Source: Candidatus Limnocylindrales bacterium (lineage in GTDB: Bacteria; Acidobacteriota; Terriglobia; Acidiferrales; UBA7541). Taken from it: a stretch of 64,000 nt of DNA. A program made the position numbers and the translations under genes. The stretch spans positions 16,421 through 80,420 of the forward strand of contig DATJWH010000011.1 of assembly GCA_035501415.1 (NCBI GenBank), given 5' to 3'. Positions 1 to 49,466 of this stretch are shown piece by piece (the stretch's first letter is position 1; the number at the start of each line of letters is the position of its first letter). The notes under the pieces were generated by a model that worked only from the letters and a program-made list of their open reading frames with translations, did not search any database and was not told the DNA's origin.

Positions 1-876
1 TGCTACATGTGTCCGGGAAACACGCGGGCCAGCGGCGCTAAGAATCCGGATTACAAGGATGTGCTTGTCTTCGACAACGATTTTCCGGCGGTGCGGATCG
101 ACACGCTGGATGGCGCGATGGAGGACGGCCTGTTGGTGGCGCGGGCGGAATCGGGAATCTGCCGCGTGGCGTGCTTTTCGCCGCGGCACGATTTGACGCT
201 GTCGCAGATGGAGGTGCCCGCGATACACAGAGTGGTGGACGTTTGGGCGAGCCAGTCGCAGGAACTGGGGGCGCGAAAGGAAATCCGGCACGTGCAGATT
301 TTCGAGAATCGCGGCGCCATGATGGGATGCAGCAACCCTCATCCGCATTGCCAGATTTGGGCGACCTCGAGCGTGCCGAATGAGCCCGCGAAGGAACTCG
401 AGGGCTTTGCGGGGCACCAGCGCGCGAAGAACACGTGTCTGCTCTGCGACTACCGCAAGCAGGAGGAAGCGGCGGGCGAACGTCTTGTGTGTGGAAACGA
501 GTTTTTCCTAGCTGTAGTTCCGTTTTGGGCCGTGTGGCCTTTTGAAACGCTGGTAATGCCAAAGCGGCATGTGGGATCGCTGGCCGATTTATCGAGTGAG
601 GAGCGCGAGGGGCTGGCAAGCTTGCTGAAGCGGCTCACAACGCGTTACGACAATCTTTTTGGAGTGCCGTTTCCGTATTCGATGGGGTTTCATCAGAGCC
701 CTACGGACAAAGTTGCCCATCCGGAATGGCACTTGCATGGGCATTACTACCCGCCGCTGCTGCGGTCGGCGACGATTCGGAAATTCATGGTGGGATTTGA
801 GATGCTGGGAAGCCCGCAGCGCGATTTGACGGCGGAGCAAGCCGCCGAAAGGCTGCGGGCGAGCCAGGAACGGTAA
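1..876 (+). CDS. galT: galactose-1-phosphate uridylyltransferase, 5' end cut by window edge
   Basis: Frame 1 is open from nt 1 (CYMCPGNTR precedes the first Met). Catalytic His-Pro-His motif [11 protein letters not shown] is present. Followed directly by galE. Confidence 0.9.
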
Positions 877-896
877 GGGGGAGGCAAAGGCAGAGC

Positions 897-1880
897 ATGT
901 CGATACTCGTGACGGGCGGCGCTGGATACATCGGCAGCGTGACGGTAGAACTGCTGCGCAAGAGAGGCGAGAAGGTAGTGGTGCTCGACGACGTGGCGCG
1001 CGGACATCGCGAAGCGCTCGAGCGGGACGTGCCGTTTTACAAGGGGAATGTGGGCGACCAGGCGCTGATTGCGAAAATCATGTCCGAGCACGAAATCGAG
1101 TCGTGCATTCACTTCGCGGCGCTGACATATGTCGGCGAATCCGTCGAGAAGCCCGCGATGTATTTCGAGAACAACGTGCAGCAGGGAATCGAGTTCATCG
1201 GGACGCTGGAGCGCGCTGGAATGCGGCGGATCGTTTTCTCATCGACGGCAGCAACGTACGGCGAGCCCAAGCGCATACCGATTCTGGAGAGCGATTCTCA
1301 GTGGCCGGAGAATCCGTATGGCTGGTCAAAGCTGCTGATGGAGCGGCTATTGAACGCATACGACCGAGCATACGGAACGAAGTTCGTGGCGCTGCGCTAT
1401 TTCAACGCGGCCGGAGCGACGGAGCGGTGCGGCGAGGATCACGATCCGGAGCCGCACCTGATTCCCAACATTCTCGCGGCTGCGGCCGGAGAGAAGAAAG
1501 AGATCGCCGTCTTCGGAAACTGCTATCCGACGCCGGACGGGACGGCGATTCGCGATTACGTGCACGTGACCGATTTGGCTGACGCGCACATTCTGGCGCT
1601 CGAACACCTGCGGCGTGGCGGCACGTCGGACTTTATGAACCTGGGAACAGGAGAGGGCCACTCGGTAATGGAAGTGATCGAAGCGGCGCGGAAGGTTACC
1701 GGTAGGGCGATTCCGACGCGAATCGAAGCTCCGCGCCCGGGCGATCCGGCGCGATTAGTGGCCGACCCGACGAGGGCGAAGAATGTTCTGAAGTGGAAGC
1801 CAGAAGCGGACCTCGAAGAAATCATCCGGTCGGCGTGGGAGTGGAAGCAACGGCATCCTCGGGGCTACGCAGCCTCCTGA
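897..1880 (+). CDS. galE: UDP-glucose 4-epimerase
   Basis: N-terminal Rossmann motif [12 protein letters not shown], catalytic YGWSK (YxxxK), 327 aa, adjacent to galT. Confidence 0.9.
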
Positions 1881-17802: not shown

Positions 17803-18055
17803 AAGAAACCTCGTGCAGCTGGGATGATTTGGTTTTCGTGAAGAAGGTGAATCATATCGTTGCGCGAGGACTGCGTCCAGTCTGAAATGGTCGAGCCCTG
17901 TGGAAAACGTCCAAAACCCCGGGGTTCTAGTACTCCGTCGTTCTCATTTCGATACACCGCTTCGAATTAATCTCTGCAAACTCTACAAAATGCAGGGTCT
18001 CATCCGGTCAAATAGATGGCGCCAAGGGGACGGTTCTGACCCCCCAAGCGAGGAG

Positions 18056-18811
18056 ATGATGGACGCCAATCCAGGAGTGCGGATCGGACCTTTCGAGGTT
18101 TTCTTTCCCCTGAAAGCGCCTGCCGCGCAGCGGACGCAGACCTCGCACGAATATCCCGGGCGGCTCTTTATCGTCGAGGGAATCGACGGCTCCGGCAAGT
18201 CCACGCAACTTAGCCTGCTTCACAAATGGCTCGAGGCGAAGGGTTACGGCGTGGTGTTCAGCGAGTGGAACTCGTCGCCGTTGGTCAAGGACACGACGAA
18301 GCATGGTAAGAAGAAAAAGATGCTGACCCCAGCGACTTTCTCCTTGATTCATGCAACGGATTTCGCCGACCGCACGGAGAGGAGCATCCTGCCCCTCCTG
18401 AAGGCCGGGGCCATCGTTCTTTGCGACCGCTACGCGTACACAGCGTTCGCGCGGGACGTTGCCCGCGGAATGGACCGCGAATGGGTGCGCAGCCTCTACG
18501 GCTTTGCGGCGAAACCGACGGTTGCCTTCTATTTCCGCGTGCCGCTCGAGACGGCGATTTCGCGGCTCGTAGGCGCGCGCGACGGCTTCAAGTACTACGA
18601 AGCCGGCCTCGACCTGGAGCTAAGCGACGACGCCGAGGAGAGCTTCCGCCTGTTTCAGGGCCGAATCATCGAGGAATACGAGAAGATGATCCCCGAGTTC
18701 AGCCTCACCGTGATCGACGCCACACTGCCGGTAGAAGCGCAGCAGGCCCATGTTCGCCACCTGGTTCGAAGCCATCTCGAGGACGCAAAGCATCTGAGGG
18801 TGAGGTCATGA
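18056..18811 (+). CDS. thymidylate-kinase-like nucleotide kinase (paralog 1, canonical P-loop)
   Basis: P-loop EGIDGSGKST and DRY motif (CDRYAYTAF). Start is uncertain: ATG 18056/18059 was chosen, while the track ORF begins at GTG 17900. ATGA overlap with paralog 2. Confidence 0.7.
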   Translation: MMDANPGVRIGPFEVFFPLKAPAAQRTQTSHEYPGRLFIVEGIDGSGKSTQLSLLHKWLEAKGYGVVFSEWNSSPLVKDTTKHGKKKKMLTPATFSLIHATDFADRTERSILPLLKAGAIVLCDRYAYTAFARDVARGMDREWVRSLYGFAAKPTVAFYFRVPLETAISRLVGARDGFKYYEAGLDLELSDDAEESFRLFQGRIIEEYEKMIPEFSLTVIDATLPVEAQQAHVRHLVRSHLEDAKHLRVRS

Positions 18812-19596
18812 GACATACTTACGGCAAGCAATTGCCCGGAATGACGCTGCCGAATCTTTCGGGCAAGCTCATCGTCATCGAAGGAACGGACGGCGCGGGC
18901 CGCACGACGCAAATCAACCTGCTGAAGCCGTGGCTCGAGGAGTTGGGCCACGCCGTGCTCGACACGGGAATGACGCGCTCCCCGCTTGCGGGGGAGGGAA
19001 TTCGCCGGGCGAAGGAAGGCAACAACCTGGGGCGCGTGACGCAGAGCCTCTTCTATGCGACGGACTTCGTTGACAGGCTCGAAAATGAGATAGTTCCGGC
19101 ACTCCGGGCCGGCTTCATCGTCCTCACCGACCGCTATATCTATTCTCTGATGGCGCGCGCCATCGTCCGCGGCATGGACGGCGCGTGGATTCGCAACATC
19201 TTTAGGGTCGCGCTCAAGCCGGACGCCGTTTTCTATATGCGGCTCGGCATAGACCAGTTGGTCCCCCGCGTGGTCTTCTCGCGCGGCTTTGACTACTGGG
19301 AATCGGGGATGGACCTGCACCCCGGCCAGAACATGTACGATAGCTTCTGCAGCTACCAGGCCGCGCTGCTTGCCGAATTTGATCGCCTGAGTGCCGAATA
19401 CAATTTCGAGGTCGTGGATGCCGCCGCGGACGCCCGCACCGTCTTCGCCCAGCTCAAGGTGAAGGTCCTGCAGCTCCTGGACCGCGACACGCGAAGCGAA
19501 TTCATCTCGCGCCAGAGTGCCGTCTCCCGCGATTGGGCTGCCGGCTGGACGGTTGAGAAGACGGAGAAGGTGCCAATCTCGGCGGCCTCGGACTAG
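18808..19596 (+). CDS. thymidylate-kinase-like protein (paralog 2, P-loop Lys replaced by Arg)
   Basis: Start ATG 18808 (MRHTYGKQL) overlaps the stop of paralog 1. EGTDGAGRTT in place of GxGK[ST]. TDRYIYSL. Colinear with paralog 1. The track extension to 18421 is an out-of-frame read across paralog 1. Confidence 0.7.
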   Translation: MRHTYGKQLPGMTLPNLSGKLIVIEGTDGAGRTTQINLLKPWLEELGHAVLDTGMTRSPLAGEGIRRAKEGNNLGRVTQSLFYATDFVDRLENEIVPALRAGFIVLTDRYIYSLMARAIVRGMDGAWIRNIFRVALKPDAVFYMRLGIDQLVPRVVFSRGFDYWESGMDLHPGQNMYDSFCSYQAALLAEFDRLSAEYNFEVVDAAADARTVFAQLKVKVLQLLDRDTRSEFISRQSAVSRDWAAGWTVEKTEKVPISAASD

Positions 19597-24511: not shown

Positions 24512-25141
24512 TCAGTCCCGCTGGCCGTCGATTGCGCGGCGCGAATCCGCGAAAAGGTCGCGCAAGGCCCCAAGGACGTACCGCGCCATAATGACGATGA
24601 GCACGAGCATCACCCCGACAATCGCGGCGGATGCGTAGGGGTGCCGCGTTGCAAGCCACGTCAGCAGCACCACTGCAAAATCTTCCCCTAGGCTCAGTGC
24701 GGCGTTCGAAAAGGGTTCTGGCGAGTGCGTCACCGCTGCCCGGGCGGTGATTTTTCCGCTGTGCGCCGCGAATGCAATCAGGGCCCCCAGCAAGCTTGCC
24801 AGCAGCCGCTCTCCTTGGGGCAATTGTGCTGTTGCGCCGTACGTAAGAAGCGCCGCTACGGGAATCCGCACGAATGTGTGCAAGGCGTTCCACAGCAGGT
24901 CGAAGAGCGGAATCTTGTCTCCGATGAATTCGATAGCGAAAAGCACGATGCAGATCGCGATGACATACCAGTCTTCGACGGGCCGCACCGCAGGCGGCAG
25001 CGTCAAGGCTCCCGTCCGCGACAGGATTCCGAGCATGCCCACGGTCGCGTAGACGTTGAGTCCCGCCGAAAAGCACACGACGACGAGAAGCGCGGTGAGT
25101 TCCGTTCCCTTGGGAATCTGCGGTATCAGCGACGCGAGCAT
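24512..25141 (-). CDS. DUF4126-family membrane protein
   Basis: Four or five TM helices. Motif EFIGDKIPLFDLLWNALHTFVRIP resembles the DKIP..D...D..HTF signature I associate with DUF4126. Confidence 0.6.
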   Translation of the reverse strand: MLASLIPQIPKGTELTALLVVVCFSAGLNVYATVGMLGILSRTGALTLPPAVRPVEDWYVIAICIVLFAIEFIGDKIPLFDLLWNALHTFVRIPVAALLTYGATAQLPQGERLLASLLGALIAFAAHSGKITARAAVTHSPEPFSNAALSLGEDFAVVLLTWLATRHPYASAAIVGVMLVLIVIMARYVLGALRDLFADSRRAIDGQRD

Positions 25142-25183: not shown

Positions 25184-25852
25184 TCAATCGGCAGCGTGAG
25201 TTTCGGGGAAGCGCTTCGCGAGCCACGCCCGCACTTCCTCCGGATGATAGTTGAAAGGGCCCAGCCCGCCCTGGTAGACGATTTTCCCTGAGTCGATCAC
25301 GTAGAGCCGTTCGGGCCAGCCGCCGTAGATGTGGTCGGCCAGATCGGTCATCCCATCGATTCCGAGCGGCAGCGGAAAATGGAACCGCTGCGTGAAATCG
25401 TTCGCAATGGCGATTCGCTGCGCCAGCGTTTTCGGCTGCGGGTAGCAGACGTTCTCGTCGAGATTCTTCTTCATTTCCCATTCATCCAGCGGATGCGCTT
25501 CGCGGATGTAGACGGCGAGGAAGTCGGCCCGGTCTTTGTAGTCGTTGTACATCTTCACCAGATCCCCGATCTGGCGGCGGAACGGCGGTCAAGTGTAGCT
25601 GCCGAAAACCAGCACCAGAGGACGCGCTCCGAGGCGATCGTGAAGATAGAAGTTCGATTGGCCGTCGAGCGAAATCAGGCGAATGTCGGGCGGCGCCTCC
25701 CCCACATGCAGGTTGCCGCGATGCCACTGCGGCAGCGCATAGCGCAGGAAGCCGTAGAGGTCGCGCGGCCCTCCCATGAAGTAGCAGCCCACGCCGACGG
25801 CAATGGCGAGAACAATCGCCAGCGAAATGCCCGTCCATTTGAGCGCGCGCAC
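25184..25852 (-). CDS. iodothyronine-deiodinase-like thioredoxin-fold selenoprotein; in-frame TGA at 25589..25591 read as Sec
   Basis: Track ORFs 25589..25852 and 25184..25558 are in the same frame and separated only by TGA. The joined sequence reads LVLVFGSYT-U-PPFRRQIGDLVKMYNDY, which matches the deiodinase active-site pattern FGS-x-T-U-PPF. N-terminal TM anchor. SECIS-like hairpin lies 12 nt after the TGA. 222 aa in total. Confidence 0.8.
25556..25576 (-). promoter_or_regulatory. bacterial SECIS-like hairpin for the deiodinase-like gene
   Basis: mRNA CGCCAGAUC-GGG-GAUCUGGUG: 9-bp stem (one G-U) with a G-rich apical loop, starting 12 nt 3' of the UGA. Confidence 0.65.
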
Positions 25853-25988: not shown

Positions 25989-28900
25989 TTACTGGAGGGT
26001 CACGCTCACGTTAACGGCGCGAACGAGCGTGCTCGTTTCAGCAAACACAGCTTGAGTTGCGTTTCCCGTGACCGTGATGTCGAGATTGCCGCTCTGCGAA
26101 CCTAAATTGTTGGGATCGCCAGAGTACAGTGCCGAAATGGCGTATGTACCCGGACCATAGGGACTTGGATTAGTGATCAGCGATTGAGCTGTGCCGCCGC
26201 TTATGTTTGCGCTGCCGAAGTAAGCAGCATTGTTAACGTCAAACTGCACGATCCCCGTGATCGACTGTGCTGACGACGTAACCGTCGCGATGAGAGTTGC
26301 GCTCGACCCAGGCCCGAGCTTCGTGCTCGAAGCGGATAGAGTCGTCACCGTGGGGACGGGGTTGTTCTGTCCACCACCACCACCACCTCCTCCTCCCCCT
26401 CCGCCACTTCCGCTAGCGCCACCCCCACAACTAATCGCGAAGATCAGCACAGAGAGAAGCCCTAGTCCCACAGCGGGCTGGAGGAATCGCCTCCTGTTTG
26501 GCGGCGCAAACAACATCAACGAGGCAAGACCTGCGACAGCGCTCAAAGCCCACCAAGCGTAGCGAGCATCCTGAACCGGACGCAACCTGGGCGTTTGGGT
26601 GGGTATAGTCACGGCGGTTAGGACGGTGGAGGGCGCAAGAGTTGCGATTGAAAGGGTTGCTGTGGCGGGCGCACCGTTGCTGAGGGTTATGGATGACGGC
26701 GAGATGCTGCATGTCTCACCGAAGAGCACGAGCCCATTGCAGCTCAGAGCAACCGTGCTGGTGTTGTTTGTTGTCGGTGTGACGGTCAAGACGGTCGTAG
26801 CGGTCTGGCCGGCAGTGATGACGAGAGACGTAGGAGTTGCGGAAATACTAAAATCGGGAATGTTCACCGTGACGTGAGTGTAGACGTAGGACGATGCATA
26901 ATTCGAGTCACCCGGATAGACCACAGTAATGGTTTCGCTGGCCTGTGGGATCGTCGTTACGGTCGCTTGCAGTACCCAGTTCCCGCCGGAGTCTTGGCCC
27001 GTCGTCGTTGTAATAGGGCCCGTGATGGGAGTGAAGTCCGAACTAAAAGAAATACTACCCGTCGGCTTGAGCAACGCGTTGCTGGCGGGATTACCGGTGC
27101 TGATAGTAGCGGTGAGTGTCACGGTGCCGCCCAAGACGACGTTGTTTGGCGTTGCCGTTGCGTTAGTCGCAGTGGGATAAACGGCATACACGGTGAGCGG
27201 AGAGGACACGGAGCTAGCGTAATTTGTGTCACCCGTGTAGTGAACGGTGAGCGTGTGCGTCCCGGACGGTGCTGCAATCGCGATCTGGACGCTTCCGCTT
27301 AAGGACGCCCCACTCGATGCCGAACCGGCCGTGCCATTCACGGAAGCAGTGCCGGAAATCTGAGTCGCCCCGTCGAAGACTGTATATGTGCCGCCAGGGG
27401 CCGCTCCCGAGCTGCCAGATGACGTTTGGGCATAAACGTACAAAGGTGCTCCGATAGTCTCCTGCGGGGCGGAACCCTGCGGCGGCGCAGGGCTAAGGAT
27501 CGTAGTAGTCGTGGCAGCCGGAGTGACCGTAACCACATCGCTCCCGGAGCTCCCGCTGTAGCTGGCATCGCCGCCGTAGCTGGCAGCGAGGGTATGCAAG
27601 CCACCCGCCAGTTGGATGGTCTGATATTCAGCGTATCCCTGACTGTTCAGGTCAAACGTCCCTGGTCCCAAAGCATTTCCATTGTCAGTAAGGGTAATGG
27701 TGCCGGTGGGGCAGCCCTGGGCTCCGTGGCCGTTTTGAGAGCACGCTGAACCGGAGATGCTGTCGACGTTGACGCGCGAGAGATATGGTGAGCCGTAAGC
27801 AAACGTCGCGGCGTTACCACTCGTTATCTGGCCGGTGTTGGAATCGAATGTCACGATCTCGACCCGTGTTTTACTCGCCTCGGGATTCACGGTCACCTGC
27901 TGCGGTGCGGAATCGCTTGCGCCGAAGGTGCTGTCGCCCGGATAGTGCGCAATGACGTTGTAAGAGGTGCCGCCCGGCAAAATATTCGTGGTGCCCATTG
28001 CGACGGCGCATGGCGAACCCGAGCAAGTGCTGCTGGTCAATGAGAAGGTGCCCGCATCCTGCTGCGCGCCCGCGCCGGTATTCGCAATCAGTGACACGGC
28101 CCCAGTCGGCACGCTGGCCCCACTCTGCGCTTTCACGTTGATCGTCACGTTGACCGAAGTCCCGTGCGTCAGACTCGCCGGCGAAAGTGACACAATCGTC
28201 GTCGAGCTTCCCTGAAATGAGCCTTGCGGCCATTGGCTTACCAGGTTTGCCACGTTGACCGTCCCGAGGCCCGTTGCCAAGTCATATCCAGTCGTCGTGC
28301 TGTATCCCGATAAGACGCCGTAGGTATCGGCCTGATTTGTGACGCTGCAGTTCTTGCTGCCCTTAAGACAAGGCACGGCAATCGTGGAACCCGTCGGAAT
28401 ATCGTAGAAAACGCAAGAGGCCGCCGGGCTCGGCGCGGACGTGCACGTCTTGCCCGACTGGCCGGCGAGACCGTACAAGACGTAGTTCGCGTTGCCCTGT
28501 CGGCCATATCTCTGGTTGATCAGTGCCATGATTCCCGCGAACGCAGGCGAGGCTACCGAAGTGCCTCCGTAGCCGGCGAAATCCTGGTAAGGCGAGTTCA
28601 GGTCGCACGTATTGAACGTCTTGTCCCGCTCGCAGACAACGTAGAAGGTGTCGTTGAATCCGTTGCTCGCGAAAAGTGCAACATCGGGTACGTCCCGCTT
28701 GCCATCGGCCGGAACGCCCGTGCCTCGTTGCCAGGAAGGCTTCGTATACCCGCCGGAGCAGGTGCTCAGGAGTTGTCCCGTGGAAATCGTGCAGTTGCTG
28801 GCGCCTCCGCTGCCTGCAGTTGTGTTAAGCAGTCCGTAATTATAGATTGCGGACGCATTGTTGCAGACCTGCTCGGCGGTTGTGTCGCCGAAGAACGAGA

Positions 28901-30341
28901 AGACTTCCGAGTTGGTGCACGAGTCGTTCCACGTCACCTCGGGGATGTACTTCAGAGCGGACGATTGGTTCGACGAGTTGCCTGACACGGTCCAGTACAA
29001 GTCGAAGCTGTTGACGTCGTTGAAGTCGGTTCCCCCGACGGAGATGTTGTAAGGCGTAGAGGCAAAGCCGTTGGCCGCCAGGCCAAACTGCGCGTACGGT
29101 TGCCCGCCGTCGCAGACCGCCGAGCCCTGGTCGCCCGACGATACGAACACCGTGATTCCTTGGGCAGAGGCTTGCTGCCAGAGTTGATTGAAGAACTGAT
29201 TCCCAGCCGTTCCCAAGCCAAGCTCACATTCGCCATAACTCTCGCTCATTACCGATGCGAGGTTATTGTCGACGATGTACTCAGCCGAAAGATCGACTCC
29301 AAATGTGGTCTCGGTCGATTCATCCACCACGAAATCGACTGTAGCGCCGGGGGCGACAGCGCTCGACCACTGCGTGTCGATATCCGCCTCCCCTTCGTCG
29401 TCGACAATACCCGGATCGGACCCGTCGTGGATCACGTTTAGTGTCGAGGCTGGAAGCCCGAACAGAGTGTGAAAGTCGTTAAAGTCCTGCGGATCGATGT
29501 CAGTCTCAGCGACAATCGCGATGGACTGACCTGTGCCATTGTTGCCGGCGGTCGTTAGGGACGGGACGTTGTAGATCGTCGCCAGATCCCAGGGACCCAG
29601 CGCGAAGATACAGAATGGCTCGGAACCGTTGGTTGTCGAACAGGGAATTGGAAAAGTGAATTGGGTTTGCAGGGGCGTGATCTTGCCCGTCGCCTTCTCA
29701 CGGCGGAAACTTCCCACCATCTGGTTCATCGGACGTCGCGGAAAATTGTTCAGCGATTCGATGCCGCCAACCACGGACGCCAGCGCGGCGGGAATCTGCG
29801 GGTCGCTTGAATTCGCCCAATGTTCCTCGCCCTGCACAGCATACCTGTGCATTTCCGTGTGAAAGGTGCTCTTGAGCTGTCCGGCCGTGCCGGAAAACTC
29901 GATGGCGATGCGCCCCTTCGCAACGCGGCTCACTTGGAAGCCATGCGAAGTCAGCCACGCTGTCACCGCTTGAATGTCCTGGTCCGAAGGACCGAACTGC
30001 TGCCCGAATTGCTCCGGCGTCATCCATTGGTGGTAGTTCGGCGTCGCCTTTTCCTGCTGTTGATCCAGCAGCGTATCGAGCGCGATCTCCTGTTCTGCGC
30101 TGCGCGTCAGCACCAACAGCATGCGGTCCAGCGGGAGATCGGGCGGTGCCGGGCCGCGGTCGTACTGTGGACGTGCCAGGGGATGCACGTTGCCCTTGAG
30201 GACCACCAGATTCGTTTCATCGATTGGGCGGGTGATACGGGAGGGAACGGGGCTTTGCTGTGCTGCCGCCGAAACCGCGAACGCCGCTGGCAGCAAACAC
30301 CCCAGCAGAATCCTGCGAACGACCATGTGACCGGGTAGCAT
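25989..30341 (-). CDS. secreted sedolisin (peptidase S53) with pro-kumamolisin activation domain, Ig-like repeats, internal hydrophobic hairpin and poly-Gly linker
   Basis: Signal MLPGHMVVRRILLGCLLPAAFAVSAAAQ (ATG 30341 or 30326). Propeptide region ATPNYHQWMTPEQFGQQFGPS. Catalytic-Ser motif YGGTSVASPAFAG. More than 5 Ig-like repeats with GDxxYxxS. 12-Gly run. Confidence 0.8.
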   Translation of the reverse strand: MLPGHMVVRRILLGCLLPAAFAVSAAAQQSPVPSRITRPIDETNLVVLKGNVHPLARPQYDRGPAPPDLPLDRMLLVLTRSAEQEIALDTLLDQQQEKATPNYHQWMTPEQFGQQFGPSDQDIQAVTAWLTSHGFQVSRVAKGRIAIEFSGTAGQLKSTFHTEMHRYAVQGEEHWANSSDPQIPAALASVVGGIESLNNFPRRPMNQMVGSFRREKATGKITPLQTQFTFPIPCSTTNGSEPFCIFALGPWDLATIYNVPSLTTAGNNGTGQSIAIVAETDIDPQDFNDFHTLFGLPASTLNVIHDGSDPGIVDDEGEADIDTQWSSAVAPGATVDFVVDESTETTFGVDLSAEYIVDNNLASVMSESYGECELGLGTAGNQFFNQLWQQASAQGITVFVSSGDQGSAVCDGGQPYAQFGLAANGFASTPYNISVGGTDFNDVNSFDLYWTVSGNSSNQSSALKYIPEVTWNDSCTNSEVFSFFGDTTAEQVCNNASAIYNYGLLNTTAGSGGASNCTISTGQLLSTCSGGYTKPSWQRGTGVPADGKRDVPDVALFASNGFNDTFYVVCERDKTFNTCDLNSPYQDFAGYGGTSVASPAFAGIMALINQRYGRQGNANYVLYGLAGQSGKTCTSAPSPAASCVFYDIPTGSTIAVPCLKGSKNCSVTNQADTYGVLSGYSTTTGYDLATGLGTVNVANLVSQWPQGSFQGSSTTIVSLSPASLTHGTSVNVTINVKAQSGASVPTGAVSLIANTGAGAQQDAGTFSLTSSTCSGSPCAVAMGTTNILPGGTSYNVIAHYPGDSTFGASDSAPQQVTVNPEASKTRVEIVTFDSNTGQITSGNAATFAYGSPYLSRVNVDSISGSACSQNGHGAQGCPTGTITLTDNGNALGPGTFDLNSQGYAEYQTIQLAGGLHTLAASYGGDASYSGSSGSDVVTVTPAATTTTILSPAPPQGSAPQETIGAPLYVYAQTSSGSSGAAPGGTYTVFDGATQISGTASVNGTAGSASSGASLSGSVQIAIAAPSGTHTLTVHYTGDTNYASSVSSPLTVYAVYPTATNATATPNNVVLGGTVTLTATISTGNPASNALLKPTGSISFSSDFTPITGPITTTTGQDSGGNWVLQATVTTIPQASETITVVYPGDSNYASSYVYTHVTVNIPDFSISATPTSLVITAGQTATTVLTVTPTTNNTSTVALSCNGLVLFGETCSISPSSITLSNGAPATATLSIATLAPSTVLTAVTIPTQTPRLRPVQDARYAWWALSAVAGLASLMLFAPPNRRRFLQPAVGLGLLSVLIFAISCGGGASGSGGGGGGGGGGGGQNNPVPTVTTLSASSTKLGPGSSATLIATVTSSAQSITGIVQFDVNNAAYFGSANISGGTAQSLITNPSPYGPGTYAISALYSGDPNNLGSQSGNLDITVTGNATQAVFAETSTLVRAVNVSVTLQ

Positions 30342-30586
30342 GGCGCCCCTACGAAGGATCCTGGGTCCCAAGAATTCCAGCACCACCCCGCGGCCGCTTT
30401 CAATCCTCCGGCAACTCCCCGGTCGGACTTGTGTGCGAGCCGCTTAGCGTGCCGGTCATATTGCCGCCCGGGAAAACAGGCGTCAAGCGGTATTTCCACT
30501 GTGTTACGAGTCAGGAAAGCGAATGTCCAGCGAATTTTGGCGCAGCATTCGGCGGCAGGCGAAACTCGAAGGAGACGCCGCTTCGC

Positions 30587-35062: not shown

Positions 35063-36577
35063 ATGAACGTCGTATTGATCTCGACCTATGAACTTGGCCG
35101 CCAGCCCTTCGGTTTGGCATCACCTGCCGCATGGCTGCGAGAGTGCGGCATGGCTGTCACCTGCGCCGATGTTTCGCGCGAGCCGCTCCCTGACGAAGCC
35201 GTCCGCTTGGCGGATTTGGTCGCCTTCTACGTTCCCATGCACACGGCTACTCGCCTTGCCGTGGCGCTCCTTCCCGCAATTCGCGAAATGAATCCCCGCG
35301 CGCATCTTTGCTTCTACGGCCTCTATGCTCCCGTGAACGAAGTGTATCTGCGCCGTTTGGGCGTCGGTACCATTCTCGGTGGCGAATTCGAGGAAGGGCT
35401 AACAAATCTGGCCGCAAGCCTCGACCCAGCGGACGGCAAAGTTCGGTTTTCAGGAGGTGGGAGCTTTAGCTCCCACGTAACCGGCACTCAATCGGGTGGG
35501 GCTTTAGCCCCTGAAGCCAAGCCTGCTTCAATTTCCCTCGCTCGCCAGCATTTTCGCGTCCCCGACCGCGCTGGCCTCCCACCCCTCGAAAAATATGCGC
35601 GTCTGATCACGCCCAAGGGCGAATCCCGCACCGTTGGCTACACGGAAGCCAGCCGCGGCTGCAAACATCTTTGCCGCCACTGCCCGATCGTTCCCGTCTA
35701 CAACGGCACATTCCGCATCGTCGATCGCGACGTCGTCCTCGAGGATATTCGCCGTCAGGTCGCCTCCGGCGCGCAGCACATCACCTTTGGCGACCCCGAT
35801 TTCTTCAATGGCCCCGGCCACGCCATTCCGCTTGTCGAAGCGCTCCATCGCGAGTTTCCGCGCCTGACTTACGACGTTACCATCAAAGTCGAGCACCTTC
35901 TCCAGCATCGCGACGCGCTCCCAAAGCTTCGCGACACCGGCTGCCTCTTCGTTACCAGCGCCGTCGAATCCGTCGACGACGCCATCCTCGACCGCCTCGC
36001 CAAGAATCACACCCGGGCCGACTTTCTCCGTGTCGTCGACCTCTTCCACGAAGTCGGCCTCACGCTCGCTCCCACCTTCGTTGCCTTCACTCCGTGGACC
36101 ACCCTCGCTGGCTTCTACGACCTGCTCGAAGTCATCCGCGAGCGCGGTCTCATCGAAAATGTCGCGCCCATTCAATTCGCCATTCGTCTCCTCATCCCCG
36201 CGGGCTCGCGCCTCCTCGACTTGCCCGAGGTCCGCAGCCTCGTCGGCCCGTTTGACGATGCCGCCCTCGTCCATCCCTGGCGCCATGACGATCCGCGCGT
36301 CGACGCCCTCTGCGAACGCTTGCAGGAAGTGGTCCACTCCGGCGAGAAAATGAACCGCCCGCGCGCCCGCATCTTCGAGCTCATCGAGCAGGCCGCCTGC
36401 CAGGCCGTCGGCCGCGCCGAGCAACCGCCGCGCCCTACCCTGCCCGTGCTCGCCTCTCGGGCCACCATCCCTTACCTGAATGAGCCTTGGTACTGTTGAG
36501 CCGAGCCCACCGGGGACCAGTTGGTTCCCATCGTCCAGGCCCGGAAGAACCTCAAGCAGGCTGACACTTTCGTCTGA
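35063..36577 (+). CDS. B12-binding-domain radical SAM selenoprotein with C-U-A-E-P tail; TGA at 36497..36499 read as Sec
   Basis: Radical SAM cluster motif ASRGCKHLCRHCP (CxxxCxxC) after an N-terminal Rossmann-like domain. The ORF track stops at ...NEPWYC-TGA, but the frame continues GCC GAG CCC to give CUAEP plus 22 codons, up to TGA 36575..36577. A hairpin starts 12 nt after the TGA. Confidence 0.75.
36512..36529 (+). promoter_or_regulatory. bacterial SECIS-like hairpin for the radical SAM gene
   Basis: GGGGACC-AGUU-GGUUCCC: 7-bp stem (one G-U), apical loop containing GU, starting 12 nt 3' of the UGA. Confidence 0.6.
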
Positions 36578-36684
36578 CCGGGCGAATCGCGCCCCCGAAT
36601 CTTGCTCGGTATTGTAAGCATTTTGTTCGCGGGATCTACCGCTCGGCGATTCTGTGCTATGAACTAAGATGGGAGGGTTCTGCA

Positions 36685-36810
36685 ATGGGCGCGGTTGAGG
36701 CAGCACTGGAAGGGAACCCGGCAGCGAAAGTCAGGCAAAGCTTAATCTACGGTACGGGGATTAAAAATTGGGCTAAGTTGTTGAAAACAAACGGCCGGAG
36801 CCCTCGTTAA
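36685..36810 (+). CDS. candidate small ORF (41 aa) between the radical SAM and ATP-grasp genes
   Basis: ATG 36685 is preceded by GGGAGGG with a 7-nt spacer. Encodes MGAVEAALEGNPAAKVRQSLIYGTGIKNWAKLLKTNGRSPR and ends at TAA 36808..36810. Below the ORF-track length cut-off. Third-position GC is about 59 percent by my count, which looks lower than the GC-rich wobble positions of neighbouring genes, so coding status is uncertain. Confidence 0.3.
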   Translation: MGAVEAALEGNPAAKVRQSLIYGTGIKNWAKLLKTNGRSPR

Positions 36811-36867
36811 TATACGGTTGCACGGGGGCGCATTAGAGACAGCCGAAGAACGGATCGAGCGAAGAGC

Positions 36868-38190
36868 GTGACGCAGGAAAGGTCAAATACGGGCCGGACG
36901 GCGAGCACCCGCAAACGCCTGCTTATACTTGCAAGCAAGCTTGGCTACCAGACGCGCGGCTTCGCCGACGCCGCCGAAACCCTGGGTGTCGAAGTCCTCT
37001 TCGGAACCGACCGCTGCCACAAGCTCGATGACCCCTGGGGCGACCGCGCCCTCGCGCTCCATTTCGAAAAACCCCGCGAGGCCGCCGACGAGATCGTTCG
37101 CCAGACCAAGGCCACTCCGCCCGACGCCATTCTCGCGTTGGGCGACCGGCCGACCTTGACCGCCGCCTTTGCCGCCGAAACCCTCGGAATCACCGGTAAT
37201 CCCCCCGTTGCCGTCGCAGCCTGCCGTAATAAGGCCCTCCAGCGCGCAGCGCTGTCGAAAGCAGGTGTCCGCGTCCCGGATTTCTTTTCATTCAACGCAA
37301 GCGACAAAATCTCGCGGGTCTTGCCTCGGGTCAAATTCCCCTGCGTCGTCAAGCCCACCGTCCTTGCCGCCAGCCAGGGCGTGATTCGTGCGAACGACGC
37401 CTCGGAATTCCACAGCGCTGTCGACCGGATTCTCGCTCTCCTCGAATCGCCCGAAATTCAGGTCTTGCGCGAACCGGGTCTCGATCAATTGCTCGTCGAG
37501 GCCTACATTCCTGGAAGGGAAGTTGCCCTCGAAGGCCTCCTCGAAAATGGCCGGCTCCGCGTCCTCGCGATTTTCGATAAGCCTGATCCACTCGACGGCC
37601 CATACTTTGAGGAAACGATTTACGTCACCCCGTCGCGGCTGCCTGTGGCGACACAGCGCGCCATCGAAGAGTGCTCGGAAGAATGCGTCGCCGCTCTGGG
37701 CCTCGTCACTGGCCCGCTTCACGCCGAATTTCGGCTCAATGAATCGGGCGTGTGGCCGCTGGAAATCGCGCCTCGCCCCATCGGCGGGTTGTGTTCGCGG
37801 GCGCTGCGCTTCGGTGCGAATAAGATGTCGCTCGAAGAGCTGCTTCTGCGCCACGCGCTCGGCATGACGGAAAGCATCGCGAAACGAGAAACCGACGCCT
37901 CCGGCGTCATGATGATTCCCGTGCCGCGCAGCGGAATCTTCGACAGTGTCGATGGGATTGACGCTGCGGAGAACGTGCCGGGCGTCACCGAAATTCGCAT
38001 CACCGCGCGCCTTCGCGATTACGTCGCGGCTTGGCCCGAAGGCTCGAGTTACCTCGGCTTCATCTTCGCCCGTGCCACATCGCCAGATGAAGTCGAGCAG
38101 GCCCTTCGCAGCGCCCACGCTGCCATGCGATTCAATTTCTCACCGCGGCTTTCCGTAGAACATCCGTTGACGCGAAAGCTAGCCACATGA
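36868..38190 (+). CDS. ATP-grasp domain ligase (carboxylate-amine/L-amino-acid-ligase-like size class)
   Basis: 440 aa. Pre-ATP-grasp N-domain (RLLILASKLGYQTRGF) and FPCVVKPTVLAASQGVIRAN ATP-grasp core. GTG start. Confidence 0.7.
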   Translation: MTQERSNTGRTASTRKRLLILASKLGYQTRGFADAAETLGVEVLFGTDRCHKLDDPWGDRALALHFEKPREAADEIVRQTKATPPDAILALGDRPTLTAAFAAETLGITGNPPVAVAACRNKALQRAALSKAGVRVPDFFSFNASDKISRVLPRVKFPCVVKPTVLAASQGVIRANDASEFHSAVDRILALLESPEIQVLREPGLDQLLVEAYIPGREVALEGLLENGRLRVLAIFDKPDPLDGPYFEETIYVTPSRLPVATQRAIEECSEECVAALGLVTGPLHAEFRLNESGVWPLEIAPRPIGGLCSRALRFGANKMSLEELLLRHALGMTESIAKRETDASGVMMIPVPRSGIFDSVDGIDAAENVPGVTEIRITARLRDYVAAWPEGSSYLGFIFARATSPDEVEQALRSAHAAMRFNFSPRLSVEHPLTRKLAT

Positions 38191-44730: not shown

Positions 44731-44930
44731 GATTGCCTCTCGACGTGCAGATTTCTTCCGTGTGGTCGTTGATTCGGCCGGGTGAATCCTACCACGGTGA
44801 CGCTTTGCCGGGGCGCGATTGCTTGAGATTCGAAGCGTTCAGCGCCGACCCGAAGCATTGTAGAATTGCGTCCGCGCGGTTCCGGCGGTCAGGCGCGCGT
44901 AGTATCCTGGCGCACCGAAAAGGGGAAACG

Positions 44931-45365
44931 ATGCCGAATGGGAAGAAAGTCGCTGCGAAGCAGCCGCGGGGCAAGAGTCCCGCGGTTGTCATCGACCGCT
45001 ATCTGGAGAGGCGAAATCCCGTGCTGAAGCAGGTCGCCAACGGCCTGCGGTCGCTTGTGAAGAAGGCTGTGCCGCAATCCCGCGAGGACGTCAATCCCTG
45101 GGGCATCCCGGTATTCGATTTTCACGGCCCGTTCTGCCTGCTGATGGCCGGAAAGAATCACATCACGTTCGGCTTCACGCGCGGCACATCGCTTGCTGAT
45201 CCTGGCAAGCTGCTCGAAGGCACGGGCAAGAATTTGCGCCATGTGAAGGTGAAGGAGAAGGAGCAGTTGCGCGATACGAATTTGCGTCAACTGATTCGAA
45301 ATGCGGCTGCGCTGAATCGCGAGACGCCCTTGACTTCGACGATGCGCGTGAAGAAGCCTGGCTGA
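44931..45365 (+). CDS. DUF1801-like (YdhG-like) small protein
   Basis: ATG 44931 preceded by AAGGGGA. 144 aa. The pattern EDVNPWGIPVFDFHGPFCLLMAGKNHITFGFTRG resembles the DUF1801 family. Confidence 0.55.
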   Translation: MPNGKKVAAKQPRGKSPAVVIDRYLERRNPVLKQVANGLRSLVKKAVPQSREDVNPWGIPVFDFHGPFCLLMAGKNHITFGFTRGTSLADPGKLLEGTGKNLRHVKVKEKEQLRDTNLRQLIRNAAALNRETPLTSTMRVKKPG

Positions 45366-45377
45366 GGCGGCGACGAA

Positions 45378-47027
45378 ATGCGAAGCAAGGCCCTGAAACT
45401 CGATGCACGCGACAATGTGCTGATCGCGCTCGTGGATTTGAAGCGGGGCGAAACGGTCGCTTTCGACGGCGCCACGTTCGAACTTGCTTCCGACGTTCCG
45501 GCGAAGCACAAGTTCGCCACAAAGGACCTGGGCGCCGGCGCCGAAGTGATCATGTACGGCGTGCTCGTCGGCAAGACCATGGAGTCGGTGCGGCGCGGCG
45601 AAGCCATCACGACGCGGAATCTGCATCATGAAAGCAGCGCGTTTCGCGACAAGGCGCGAGAGTATCGCTGGCAGGCGCCGGACGTCTCGCGCTGGGCCTC
45701 GCGCACATTTCAGGGATTCAAGCGCCCGGATGGGCAGGTGGGCACGCGCAATCACTGGCTGGTTGTCCCGCTCGTCTTCTGCGAGAACCGCAACATCGCC
45801 GTGCTGAAGCAGGCGTTCGAGGAGGAGCTCGGCTTCGCGCGGCCGCAGGTGTACCGGAGCCAGGTGGCGGAGTTGGCGCGGCTCTATCGCGAGGGGCGCG
45901 CGGACGAAATCCGCGACCAAAAGCAATCGGCGCCGGCGGGCGGCGCGCCGCGGTCGCACATCTTCGAGCACATCGACGGAATCAAGTTTCTGATGCATGA
46001 AGGCGGCTGCGGCTGCACGCGCGAGGATGCACGCAACCTGTGCGGCTTGATCGCGGGCTACATCCACCATCCCAACGTCGCGGGCGCCACGGTGCTGAGC
46101 CTTGGATGCCAGCATTCGCAGATCGCCATCCTGCGCGAGGAGATTCGGAAGCGCGACCCGCATCTTGCCAAACCGCTGCTGATTTTCGAGCAGCAGCGCG
46201 CGGGGACTGAATTCGACATGCTGTCCGCGGCGGTGCGCGAAACGTTTCTCGGGCTGATCGAGGCGGAGAAGGCGCGGCGCGAGCCGGCGCCGCTCTCGCA
46301 TCTCACGCTGGGATTGAAGTGCGGCGGCTCCGATGGATTTTCGGGCATCTCCGCGAATCCGGCGATCGGCCACACGGCGGATTTGGTTGCAGCGCTGGGA
46401 GGGCGGGGAATTCTTTCCGAGTTTCCGGAGCTTTGCGGCGTCGAGCAGGAATTGATCGACCGCAGCACGAATAAGGAAGTAGGCAACCGCTTCATTGAGT
46501 TGATGCGCGATTATGCGGCCCGCGCGAAAGCCGTTCATTCCGGATTCGACATGAACCCCTCGCCGGGAAACATTCGCGATGGATTGATCACGGACGCGAT
46601 GAAATCGGCCGGCGCAGCGAAGAAAGGCGGCACGTCGCCGGTCACAGCTGTGCTCGATTATCCGGAGTATTCGTCGACGCCCGGATTGAATCTTCAATGC
46701 ACGCCCGGCAGCGACGTGGAGTGCGTTTCGGCGCAAGTTGGAGCTGGCGCGAACGTGGTGCTGTTCACGACGGGGCTGGGCACGCCGACGGGCAATGCGA
46801 TTGCGCCGGTGGTGAAGCTCGCCACGAATTCGGAGCTCGCAGCGCGGATGAACGACATCATCGATGTCGATACCGGCGCGGTCGTTCGTGGAGAATCCAC
46901 GATCGAGCAGATGGGCGAAGCGATTCTCGAATTCGTGATCAAGGTCGCGAGCGGCGAGGCGAAGACCAAGGCCGAGCTGCTGGGCCAGGACGATTTCATC
47001 CCGTGGAAGCGCGGAGTTTCGCTGTGA
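45378..47027 (+). CDS. UxaA-family sugar-acid dehydratase (altronate/galactarate-dehydratase-like)
   Basis: N-terminal SAF domain (LDARDNVLIALVDLKRGE), central Cys-rich HEGGCGC and GLKCGGSDGFSG motifs, 549 aa. Confidence 0.8.
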   Translation: MRSKALKLDARDNVLIALVDLKRGETVAFDGATFELASDVPAKHKFATKDLGAGAEVIMYGVLVGKTMESVRRGEAITTRNLHHESSAFRDKAREYRWQAPDVSRWASRTFQGFKRPDGQVGTRNHWLVVPLVFCENRNIAVLKQAFEEELGFARPQVYRSQVAELARLYREGRADEIRDQKQSAPAGGAPRSHIFEHIDGIKFLMHEGGCGCTREDARNLCGLIAGYIHHPNVAGATVLSLGCQHSQIAILREEIRKRDPHLAKPLLIFEQQRAGTEFDMLSAAVRETFLGLIEAEKARREPAPLSHLTLGLKCGGSDGFSGISANPAIGHTADLVAALGGRGILSEFPELCGVEQELIDRSTNKEVGNRFIELMRDYAARAKAVHSGFDMNPSPGNIRDGLITDAMKSAGAAKKGGTSPVTAVLDYPEYSSTPGLNLQCTPGSDVECVSAQVGAGANVVLFTTGLGTPTGNAIAPVVKLATNSELAARMNDIIDVDTGAVVRGESTIEQMGEAILEFVIKVASGEAKTKAELLGQDDFIPWKRGVSL

Positions 47028-47815
47028 GTTCAAACGGCGCGGCTCCTTTTCGACTCGACGGCAAGACCGCCGTGGTTACCGGCGGCGGAAGCGGCATCGG
47101 ACGGGCGATCGCGAACCGGTTCGCGGAGCAGGGCGCGGCAGTTTTTATTCTGGATGTAAATCGCGGCGCGGGAGAAGAGGTGGCGCGCGAGGTCGCGGCA
47201 AAGCAGGGCCGCGCGAAGGCCATTGCGTGCGACATTTCGGATCAGCAGCAGGCCAAGGCCGCGTTCGACGAAATCGCGCGCGAAGGACCAATCCAGATCC
47301 TGGTGAACAACGCAGGCATCTCGCAGATCGGCTCGCTCGAAAAAACGGCGGAGAGCGATTTCGACCGCATCTTCCGCGTGAACGTGAAGGGCATGTACAA
47401 CTGCATGCTCGCGTGCGCCGAGCGGATGAAGGCGCATGGCGGCGTGATCCTGAACATGGCGTCGATTGCGGGCTCGGCAGGGCTCGCGGACCGCTTCGCG
47501 TATTCGATGAGCAAGGGCGCGGTGATTGCGATGACCTATTCGGTGGCGCGAGACTATCTGGCCTACAAAATCCGCTGCAATTGCATTTCGCCGGCGCGCG
47601 TGCACACGCCGTTCGTGGACGACTATCTGCGGAAGAATTATCCCGGGCACGAGCGGGAAATGTTCGAGAAGCTCTCGCAGGCGCAGCCCATCGGCCGCAT
47701 GGCGCAGCCCTCCGAAGTGGCGGATTTCGCGCTTTTTCTGTGCTCGGATCAGGCAGCCTTCATTACTGGCGTCGATTACCCGATCGATGGGGGCTTCACG
47801 AATCTTCATGGCTGA
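47024..47815 (+). CDS. SDR-family oxidoreductase
   Basis: GTG 47024 overlaps the uxaA-like stop (GTGA). TGGGSGIG, NNAG, YSMSK (YxxxK). Confidence 0.8.
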   Translation: MSSNGAAPFRLDGKTAVVTGGGSGIGRAIANRFAEQGAAVFILDVNRGAGEEVAREVAAKQGRAKAIACDISDQQQAKAAFDEIAREGPIQILVNNAGISQIGSLEKTAESDFDRIFRVNVKGMYNCMLACAERMKAHGGVILNMASIAGSAGLADRFAYSMSKGAVIAMTYSVARDYLAYKIRCNCISPARVHTPFVDDYLRKNYPGHEREMFEKLSQAQPIGRMAQPSEVADFALFLCSDQAAFITGVDYPIDGGFTNLHG

Positions 47816-47821
47816 CATGCC

Positions 47822-48676
47822 TTGAGAATCGATTCCCACCAACATTTCTGGAAATACGATCCGCGGCGGGACGCGTGGATCACGGACGAGATGGCCGTCC
47901 TGAAGCGTGATTTTCTGCCGGAGGAACTGATGCCGGAGCTTCGGGAGAACGGCATCGGCGGCAGCGTCGCGGTGCAGGCCGCGCATTCCGAGAATGAGAC
48001 GCGATTCCTGCTCGAACTGGCGGACCAGCATCCGGAAATTCTCGGTGTCGTCGGATGGGTGGACCTGCGGCAACCGGACGCGGCCGGGCGGTTGGAATTC
48101 TTTTCTCGATTTGCGAAGTTTCGCGGAGTGCGGCACGTGGTCCAGGCGGAGCCGGACGACCGTTTTTTGCTGAGCGAGGATTTCTGCCGCGGCATCTCGC
48201 TTCTTCGGCGGTTTGGATTCACGTACGACATTTTGATTTATCCGAAGCACCTTCCGGCGGCGTGCGAATTCGTCGCCAAATTTCCCGAGCAGCGATTTGT
48301 GGTCGACCATCTGGCAAAGCCGCCGATTCGCGAGAAGAATCTCGGGGCCTGGGCGAAGGGGATGCGCGCCATCGCGGCGCAACCGAACGTATTCTGCAAA
48401 CTCTCGGGACTGATTACGGAAGCGGACTGGCGCTCCTGGCGGCCGGACGATTGCAAGCCGTGCCTGGACGTGGCGTTCGAAGCGTTTGGCGCAGACCGGC
48501 TCATGTTCGGCTCCGATTGGCCCGTGTGCCTGTTGGCGGGGACGTACCGGCAGGTGAAGGATTTGATCGCGGGCTACGTTTGCCGTCTCTCAGCGGCCGA
48601 GCAGGAAAAAATCTTCGGTTTGAATGCGGCGCGATTTTATGGTTTAAGGACTCCTCGTCATGGACCTGCAACTTAA
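47822..48676 (+). CDS. amidohydrolase-2 (COG3618-type sugar lactonase, L-fucono-1,5-lactonase-like)
   Basis: RIDSHQHFW metal-binding N-terminus, GSDWPV near the C-terminus. TTG start assumed. Confidence 0.75.
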   Translation: MRIDSHQHFWKYDPRRDAWITDEMAVLKRDFLPEELMPELRENGIGGSVAVQAAHSENETRFLLELADQHPEILGVVGWVDLRQPDAAGRLEFFSRFAKFRGVRHVVQAEPDDRFLLSEDFCRGISLLRRFGFTYDILIYPKHLPAACEFVAKFPEQRFVVDHLAKPPIREKNLGAWAKGMRAIAAQPNVFCKLSGLITEADWRSWRPDDCKPCLDVAFEAFGADRLMFGSDWPVCLLAGTYRQVKDLIAGYVCRLSAAEQEKIFGLNAARFYGLRTPRHGPAT

Positions 48677-49442
48677 AGACAAAGTGGTGATCGTCACGGG
48701 CGGCGCGAAGGGGATTGGCGCGTCGATCGCGCGCGCATGCGGCGAAGAGGGCGCGATCCCGGTGATTGTGGGGCGCGGAGCAGAGGCGGCCGAGCGATTG
48801 CAATCGGAGCTTCATCGCGGCGGCGCGATGAGCCATTTCATCGAGGCGGAGCTGGCTGAGCCGGCGAATTGCGCGAAGGCGGTGGAGGAAACGATACGGA
48901 CGTTCGGCCATATCGACGCGTTGGTGAACAACGCCGGGCGGAACGATGGAGTGGGATTGGAGCGCGGCGACCCGGAGCGGTTTGTGGCGTCTGTGAAAAG
49001 CAATCTGGTGCATTACTACGCGATGGCGCATTACGCCCTGCCGTACCTGAAGCGGAGCCGGGGAAGCATCGTCAACATAAGTTCGAAGGTGGCCGTGACG
49101 GGGCAGGGCGGGACGTCCGGCTACGCCGCGTCGAAGGGCGGAATTTTCGCGTTGACGCGCGAGTGGGCGGCGGAGCTGCTGCCGTACGGCATCCGCGTGA
49201 ACAACGTGGTGCCCGCCGAGGTGATGACGCCGCTCTACGAATCGTGGCTGAAGACATTTCCGAATCCGCAGGAAAAGCTGAACACGATTCTCACGAAGAT
49301 TCCCTTCGAGAAGCGAATGACGAAAGGCGAGGAAATCGCGGCGATGACGGTGTTCCTGATTTCCGCCCAGTCGGAACATACGACGGGCCAGCATGTTTAT
49401 GTCGACGGCGGTTACGTGCATCTGGATCGCGCTCTCACGTAG
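48660..49442 (+). CDS. SDR-family oxidoreductase (second copy)
   Basis: VTGGAKGIG, NNAG, YAASK. 17-nt overlap with the lactonase gene. Confidence 0.8.
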   Translation: MDLQLKDKVVIVTGGAKGIGASIARACGEEGAIPVIVGRGAEAAERLQSELHRGGAMSHFIEAELAEPANCAKAVEETIRTFGHIDALVNNAGRNDGVGLERGDPERFVASVKSNLVHYYAMAHYALPYLKRSRGSIVNISSKVAVTGQGGTSGYAASKGGIFALTREWAAELLPYGIRVNNVVPAEVMTPLYESWLKTFPNPQEKLNTILTKIPFEKRMTKGEEIAAMTVFLISAQSEHTTGQHVYVDGGYVHLDRALT

Positions 49443-49466
49443 CGCACGGCGCACCCGCGGAGACTC

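Follow-up and report, generated by a model that had tools for sequence, protein, structure and literature searches.

A membrane-anchored deiodinase-like selenoprotein predicted from an in-frame UGA codon in soil Acidobacteriota

Bacterial selenoproteins resembling iodothyronine deiodinases, together with their cysteine (Cys) homologs and bacterial selenocysteine insertion sequence (SECIS) elements, were reported from the Sargasso Sea by Zhang, Fomenko and Gladyshev in 2005 (PMC1088965), and current reviews list them as uncharacterised (PMC9312934, PMC13188914), which agrees with the initial annotation of the locus described here in leaving the family without an assigned function. The gene in question lies at 25184..25852 on the minus strand of a 64,000-nucleotide (nt) stretch of DNA (the window) and belongs to this family. 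Like the proteins reported in 2005, its product combines the thioredoxin fold of PF00837 with an in-frame UGA at the catalytic position, Cys homologs, and a SECIS-like hairpin with a loop G after the UGA. It differs from the motif UxxC given for the bacterial family (PMC9312934, PMC13188914) in that the window clade carries U-P-P-F with no Cys at +3, as do animal Dio2 and Dio3, and the clade comes from soil Acidobacteriota (metagenome-assembled genomes, MAGs, of Ca. Acidiferrales and Acidoferrum), whereas the 2005 family came from marine plankton. Particular to the clade are also the Sec (selenocysteine) form in 59 of 59 species-level orthologs, an N-terminal transmembrane anchor and an invariant Cys136. 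With vertebrate Dio1-3 (4TR3, 9H48) it shares the single N-terminal transmembrane anchor, a thioredoxin fold with the insertion called loop-D, the S-x-T-U-P-P-F motif and the Ser/Thr/Tyr/Glu/His relay, but its SECIS would be a bacterial hairpin within the coding region, unlike the eukaryotic element in the 3'-untranslated region of the Dio genes, and one would not expect thyroid hormones to be its substrates. We consider it highly probable that the locus is one intact gene in which UGA88 is recoded to Sec in a SECIS-dependent manner, giving a membrane-anchored enzyme of the deiodinase family. The selenoprotein call of the initial annotation is thus borne out, while the novelty it attached to the finding was overstated, as the family has been known since 2005 (PMC1088965).

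Two minus-strand open reading frames (ORFs), 25589..25852 (87 codons, GTG start) and 25184..25558, share one frame and are separated by a single TGA (25589..25591); both the coordinates and the read-through sequence first given for them hold. The read-through product has 222 residues, MRALKW...LVLVFGSYT-U-PPFRRQIGDLVKMYNDYKDR...ETHAAD, and reads LVLVFGSYT-U-PPFRRQIGDLV around the TGA. The window maps to the 151-kb contig Ga0335083_10000106 of the Joint Genome Institute (JGI) metagenome 3300032954, where the locus is annotated as two genes, one of 87 residues with no Pfam match and one of 122 residues with a T4_deiodinase match, which is the kind of split that had been foreseen for automated gene callers. 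The features of the gene are as follows.

25184..25852, minus strand: complete deiodinase-like selenoprotein gene of 222 codons in one frame, with PF00837 spanning the TGA and a match to Dio3
25850..25852, minus strand: GTG start; orthologs share the N-terminus MRxxKW
25775..25831, minus strand: N-terminal transmembrane anchor, residues 8-26, GISLAIVLAIAVGVGCYFM, from the Kyte-Doolittle profile and the helix of an ortholog model
25580..25606, minus strand: active-site motif F-G-S-Y-T-U-P-P-F, residues 83-91, from the alignment with orthologs and Dio2/Dio3
25589..25591, minus strand: UGA codon 88, the predicted selenocysteine codon (Sec88), aligned to the catalytic Sec170 of mouse Dio3
25556..25576, minus strand: SECIS-like hairpin, with the 5' arm at 25568..25576, the loop GGG at 25565..25567 and the 3' arm at 25556..25564
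25490..25501, minus strand: E118-A-H120-P, the start of the Dio-specific insertion (loop-D), equivalent to Dio3 Glu200/His202
25445..25447, minus strand: codon (TGC) of Cys136, a candidate resolving cysteine, in N-V-C-Y-P-Q-P at the C-terminal edge of loop-D
25184..25186, minus strand: genuine stop (TGA), the end of the 222-codon gene

Orthologs were sought in GTDB, each species being represented by a single genome, and 65 loci were obtained; nearly all lie in Acidobacteriota MAGs that bear the label Ca. Acidiferrales or Ca. Acidoferrum. The best-matching locus is 87% identical, and the window's own genome is therefore absent from the species representatives. TGA occupies the motif column in all 59 loci that hold the motif region, at protein identities of 56-87%, and their motif reads FGSYT*PPF apart from rare variants with L or F; S85, T87, U88, P89, P90 and F91 are invariant in the 59 Sec forms and are the same in Dio2 and Dio3. 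Full-length relatives in the databases are of two kinds, having either Cys (FGSFT-C-PPFRRN, about 57-61% identity) or “W” at the column, and the “W” was confirmed for the entry P0001 to be a TGA translated by genetic code 4. Cys stands at the column in nine of nine full-length Cys-form homologs examined, TGC or TGT being read in the DNA of three distinct Cys-form loci, and these nine make up one monophyletic sister clade. More than 100 further matches are C-terminal fragments of 120-170 residues that start with MYNDYK, which is the signature of split Sec genes. A comparison of this kind had been proposed with the initial annotation, and its outcome, TGA throughout the orthologs and Cys in the sister clade, speaks for the Sec call.

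The same column is also TGA in locus L071, a short JGI contig on which the Sec-form gene (69..338 and 501..1535) was translated with code 4 (TGA as Trp) into a product of 344 residues, whose spurious N-terminal extension of 107 residues runs across a second TGA; upstream of this Sec form there is a glutaredoxin gene, an anecdotal observation. The sole non-acidobacterial Sec-form match with the full motif is found in a MAG labelled “delta proteobacterium” (L059, 3001..3596), where the frame is lost after YIK, through either a frameshift error of long-read assembly or a real pseudogene.

Compared with 13 orthologs, the substitutions by codon position number 205/113/392 upstream and 207/101/570 downstream of the TGA, and no other in-frame stop occurs among 61 Sec forms. 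Judging from these counts, both flanks of the TGA are under third-position-biased purifying selection in one frame, and the loss of a conserved downstream frame, which had been named as the outcome that would speak against a selenoprotein, was not what was found. TGA terminates 16 of the 25 Pfam-supported genes in the window, including the deiodinase-like gene itself. It is a normal stop there, so the standard code must apply with recoding confined to this site, and a genome-wide reassignment of TGA was rejected on the same count.

The hairpin with a 9-bp stem and a G-rich loop, which had been noticed 12 nt past the UGA, is present at 25556..25576 as CGCCAGAUC-GGG-GAUCUGGUG; its nine pairs include one G-U, and it folds alone at -13.4 kcal/mol. 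In the SECIS of E. coli fdhF, a spacer of about 11-13 nt separates the UGA from the SelB-binding upper stem, which carries an essential G in a small apical loop. The window hairpin resembles that element in lying immediately 3' of the UGA inside the ORF, and differs from it in having no obvious bulged U and a loop of 3 nt (GGN), or of 5 nt in some orthologs; the binding of SelB is putative. At the first position of the loop (column 25) G is invariant, in accordance with the loop G that characterises bacterial SECIS elements (PMC1088965).

As a single sequence, the hairpin is weak evidence, but its conservation and covariation in orthologs lift it above chance. In an alignment of 38 sequences of the window's clade (A1), in which the hairpin stands in identical register, 88.6% of the cells are paired, compared with 32-50% after displacement of the 3' partner by 1-3 columns. 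Compensatory double changes are found in four of the nine pairs (44 cells), and the observed covariation score is attained by none of 500 shuffles. A change from Gln to Glu (CAG to GAG) is matched by a synonymous change in Leu (CUG to CUC), and the triplets Ile-Gly-Asp, Val-Gly-Tyr and Ile-Gly-Asn interchange while their codons AUC/GAU, GUA/UAC and AUU/AAU remain complementary, so that the RNA structure constrains the protein sequence. Only five distinct sequences, those of the window and a few close relatives, have the outermost C-G pair, and the conserved core is a stem of 8 bp (25557..25575) that starts 13 nt after the UGA. In 61 Sec forms the 28-nt segment folds at -7.3 to -13.4 kcal/mol (mean -10.0); three independent Cys-form genes with TGC or TGT keep four of the nine pairs, and there the segment reaches no more than -2.6 to -4.8 kcal/mol. 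The hairpin is specific to the Sec forms and absent from the three Cys-form genes, which answers in favour of the initial annotation the question it had raised about the conservation of this structure. A conserved, covarying and Sec-specific signal in 59 genomes would be difficult to account for otherwise; it supports Sec decoding indirectly, and the in-frame TGA very probably encodes selenocysteine.

The assignment to the iodothyronine deiodinase family, which had been proposed from the active-site signature, is firm. With Sec written as Cys, the read-through protein scores 145.7 bits (E 1.8e-42) with Pfam T4_deiodinase (PF00837), whose cut-off is 27; the match covers residues 48-214 and so crosses the TGA, and AhpC-TSA, Redoxin and Thioredoxin_8 give no more than weak secondary matches. 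Sequence matches in the PDB are limited to mouse Dio3 (4tr3, E 1.3e-30) and Dio2 (9h48, E 1e-26). The UGA column aligns to the catalytic Sec-to-Cys residue of both structures, and FGSYT-U-PPF corresponds residue for residue to FGSCT-(U)C-PPF (4tr3) and FGSAT-C-PPF (9h48). Identity to Dio3 in the catalytic domain is 39% over 163 residues, where that between Dio2 and Dio3 is 43%; in terms of sequence, the identity of the window clade to the mammalian deiodinases is unusually high, and the clade is nearly as close to Dio3 as Dio2 is. The NCBIfam model NF038285 “deiodinase_rel” gives 179 bits, below its cut-off of 250 bits, with a match confined to the C-terminal half. The window protein shares a C-terminal Dio-like domain with that model, but the model has 347 positions with an extra N-terminal region that is absent from the window protein, and membership in this equivalog was rejected for the low score and the partial match.

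Structural comparison was made with an AlphaFold2 model of the ortholog P0005 in place of the window protein (mean predicted local distance difference test score 84, predicted template modelling score 0.80). The model has a transmembrane helix (residues 3-27), a juxtamembrane helix, a thioredoxin fold, and a low-confidence loop at the site of the Dio loop-D. In a Foldseek search of the PDB, Dio2 (template modelling, TM, score 0.82) and Dio3 (TM 0.78) come out on top for this model; the next neighbours, ResA/TlpA-like proteins and peroxiredoxins, have E-values worse by about five orders of magnitude. In the window protein, the 19-residue Kyte-Doolittle maximum is 2.26 at residues 8-26, and the charges on either side of it (+2.0 on the N side, +1.2 on the C side) speak weakly for an N-in orientation. 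Both the membrane anchor upstream of the TGA and the fold continuing downstream of it, as originally described, are thus found.

The E118-A-H120-P sequence is invariant in the 59 Sec forms, the nine Cys forms, Dio2 and Dio3, and in the alignment of the window clade the invariant stretch of loop-D extends over E118-A-H120-P-L-D-E-W125. The corresponding Glu200 and His202 of Dio3 have been proposed to form part of a proton relay and the substrate site (PMC11592359). Five of the six residues of the proposed relay are invariant (Ser85, Thr87, Tyr115, Glu118 and His120), as are the equivalents of Dio3 Glu259 and Trp207, and Dio3 Cys168 corresponds to Tyr86. Position 136 is Cys in all 59 Sec forms and Val or Ile in all nine Cys forms, a pattern from which Cys136 might tentatively be taken as the resolving thiol for a Se-S intermediate.

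The catalytic cycle that these residues would support can be outlined as follows. By comparison, UGA88 would not be read as a stop during translation; the hairpin of 8-9 bp, 12-13 nt downstream and with its invariant loop G, would act as a bacterial SECIS and bring SelB-GTP-Sec-tRNA(Sec) to the ribosome, whereupon selenocysteine would be inserted. By homology, the selenolate of Sec88 in S-x-T-U-P-P-F, backed by the hydrogen-bond relay of Ser85, Thr87, Tyr115, Glu118 and His120, would attack an electrophile, either a halogen on an aromatic substrate, as in the deiodinases, or a peroxide. More speculatively, the oxidised selenium (Se-X or Se-OH) might be resolved by Cys136 of loop-D to form a selenenyl-sulfide, which a thiol reductant might then reduce.

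The choice between the two electrophiles separates deiodinase-like chemistry from the best-surviving alternative, in which the protein is a selenoprotein that works as a generic peroxiredoxin-like or TlpA-like thiol/selenol oxidoreductase, reducing peroxides or exchanging disulfides at the membrane with no dehalogenase chemistry. Such a function was suggested by the authors of the 2005 study (PMC1088965), and it accords with the weak secondary matches to AhpC-TSA and Redoxin, with ResA/TlpA-like proteins and peroxiredoxins as the next structural neighbours, and with the CMD/AhpD-like redox genes that adjoin Cys-form relatives. Counting against deiodinase chemistry are also several residues of Dio3 that are not kept, namely His219, the distal relay His (Pro140 here), Cys239 (Leu161) and Arg275, the carboxylate clamp (Leu or Met at position 197), so that among the thyronine-binding residues the His202 equivalent is kept and those of Arg275 and His219 are not. 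The substrate of the bacterial members and the role of Cys136 are themselves putative, and the association of Sec with Cys136 amounts to one evolutionary event because the Cys forms are a single sister clade, for which reason their co-occurrence was rejected as statistical evidence. On the other side, the Dio-specific loop-D is kept with its invariant E-A-H-P-x-D-E-W, which borders the Dio substrate site and is not an ordinary feature of peroxiredoxins or TlpA, and the identity of 39% to Dio3 stands against 14-20% to peroxiredoxin and ResA structures. Deiodinase-like chemistry on an aromatic halide is favoured by the retention of this substrate-site insertion, while a peroxidase or oxidoreductase role stays alive because the thyronine clamp is lost, the structural neighbours include peroxiredoxin-like and TlpA-like proteins, and redox genes lie near some Cys forms. 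We give the generic oxidoreductase a considerable chance of being right, somewhat short of even, and regard dehalogenation as a possible but doubtful function, the rest of the probability going to other functions. A more far-reaching proposal, which we think unlikely, is that the protein might be a Sec-dependent reductive dehalogenase of natural halogenated phenolics in soil organic matter, with Cys136 as a clade-specific resolving thiol, and might be the nearest relative among prokaryotes of the animal thyroid-hormone deiodinases, or their partner in a horizontal transfer.

The decoding of UGA88 as Sec likewise has to be weighed against other results, several of which tell against it. The 71-nt context of the hairpin is no more stable than its dinucleotide shuffles (z = -0.45) and its minimum-free-energy structure differs from the hairpin, on which account thermodynamic stability was dropped as evidence and covariation was used instead. 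About 2.2% of positions in the window, which has 61% GC, are followed at a distance of 8-20 nt by the start of a hairpin of 8 bp or more. In a distant Sec clade (clade B, 58-62% identity) the hairpin, (G)UCGCC-AGGUY-GGCGA(C), is shifted and almost invariant, offering no covariation evidence, and was set aside as neither supporting nor contradicting the structure. The genes selA, selB and selD and tRNA-Sec were not found within the 64-kb window by ARAGORN, Rfam and Pfam scans of about 40 ORFs, ARAGORN detecting no tRNA in the window at all. In the ortholog loci the only tRNA is tRNA-Phe (L015 and L033), and in Rfam searches in both gathering and E-value modes the hairpin had no match to any bacterial SECIS family, only chance hits being returned. 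Sec-decoding genomes do exist among Acidobacteria (PMC1794560).

These results leave room for a reading in which UGA88 is decoded as Cys, Ser, Trp or another residue by a suppressor tRNA, such as an acidobacterial allo-tRNA or a SelB-dependent tRNA-Cys of the selC* type, or is passed by leaky read-through. A role as nonsense suppressors is possible for the allo-tRNAs of Acidobacteria, and in some bacteria selC* tRNA-Cys is able to use SECIS and SelB (PMC5389517); the Sec machinery of the source genome is, moreover, not among the genes found in the window. The position-specific, covarying hairpin with SECIS geometry, however, points to local recoding of the SelB type instead of general suppression, which would be costly where TGA is the main stop codon. 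Additionally, the bacteria for which selC* was reported are anaerobic Firmicutes, Thermodesulfobacteria, Nitrospirae and Proteobacteria and do not include Acidobacteria (PMC5389517), and the aligned residue is Sec in the animal deiodinases, the family being an established selenoprotein family (PMC1088965). A residue other than Sec is thus very unlikely. That the locus is a pseudogene or fragment pair, either a Cys-type gene killed by a nonsense mutation or two small independent genes back to back, is hardly credible, for although gene callers annotate two genes, more than 100 database entries are C-terminal fragments and one distant locus (L059) is frameshifted, this idea, like that of a sequencing error, is effectively refuted by the TGA at the identical column in 59 of 59 species-level genomes of 56-87% identity and by the third-position-biased substitutions on both of its sides; as both the Pfam domain and the thioredoxin fold extend across the TGA, neither fragment alone would be a complete fold.

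With Sec decoding as the preferred reading, the significance of the locus lies mainly in annotation and distribution. At E-values of up to 1e-3, a query with the C-terminal 134 residues finds 2661 clusters at 50% identity. Many of the entries are fragments, and FGNFT-C-GPFR is the motif in the majority of full-length bacterial relatives. The more than 100 database clusters with only the C-terminal fragment indicate that the family is systematically mis-annotated in Acidobacteriota, a dominant soil phylum, and our literature search found no paper that ties deiodinase-like selenoproteins to Acidobacteria. The retention of Sec in 59 species-level genomes implies active Sec decoding and a selenium requirement across the Acidiferrales/Acidoferrum lineage. 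The closeness of the clade to the animal enzymes makes it a sensible candidate for the study of dehalogenase and peroxidase activity, the outcome of which would bear on the origin of the thyroid-hormone deiodinases. Current concepts are unchanged because the family and the mechanism are already established.

In the alignment of clade B (A2, L034-L061), columns 13-31 after the UGA show the pair 13-31 (C-G) in 10 of 22 distinct sequences and the pair 15-29 (U-A) in 11 of 22. The two look like alternatives (T15 with A31, C/G15 with G31), their exclusivity being read off the alignment and not counted, and the pattern resembles alternative ways of stabilising the shifted hairpin.

Directly downstream of the selenoprotein gene lies the following neighbour.

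24512..25141, minus strand: co-directional gene of a DUF4126 membrane protein (PF13548, E 3.6e-42)

The DUF4126 gene starts 42 nt past the selenoprotein stop on the same strand and is followed by a convergent gene of the AsmA family. It is possibly co-transcribed with the selenoprotein gene, and the closest relatives alone (L001-L004, L016, L060 and L063) preserve its synteny. A conserved operon partner was rejected because the synteny of the DUF4126, AsmA and S53 genes does not extend beyond the closest relatives; the neighbours differ in other clades, which gives no ground for inferring a functional partner, and DUF4126 is probably not one. The upstream neighbour (25989..30386, minus strand) encodes an S53/kumamolisin-type peptidase of 1465 residues. 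Besides a pro-kumamolisin activation domain it has five Big_3_5 Ig-like repeats, about 13 Gly in a row and, near the C-terminal third, a hydrophobic segment; the product is a very large protease of the sedolisin type that is probably surface-anchored. At two Cys-form loci (L066, 2622..3827, and L069, 2795..5302), the flanking genes comprise two or three of the CMD/AhpD-like type (PF02627) together with a class-V aminotransferase or cysteine-desulfurase-like gene, which suggests, anecdotally, a redox gene cluster not seen around the Sec forms.

Among the TGA-split ORFs of the window there is no convincing candidate for a second selenoprotein gene. Elsewhere in the window, the plus-strand ORFs 17900..18811 and 18421..19596 (together 17900..19596) overlap in different frames and each have a thymidylate-kinase domain; they represent two Tmk-like genes in tandem or, alternatively, a frameshifted duplication. 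At 35063..38190 (plus strand), a radical-SAM gene is followed by an ATP-grasp/L-amino-acid-ligase gene with a LAL_C2 domain, and the pair could be a small peptide-modification or ligase cluster. Finally, 44889..50516 holds long minus-strand ORFs of 714, 450 and 671 residues that have no Pfam match and are overlapped by long plus-strand ORFs.

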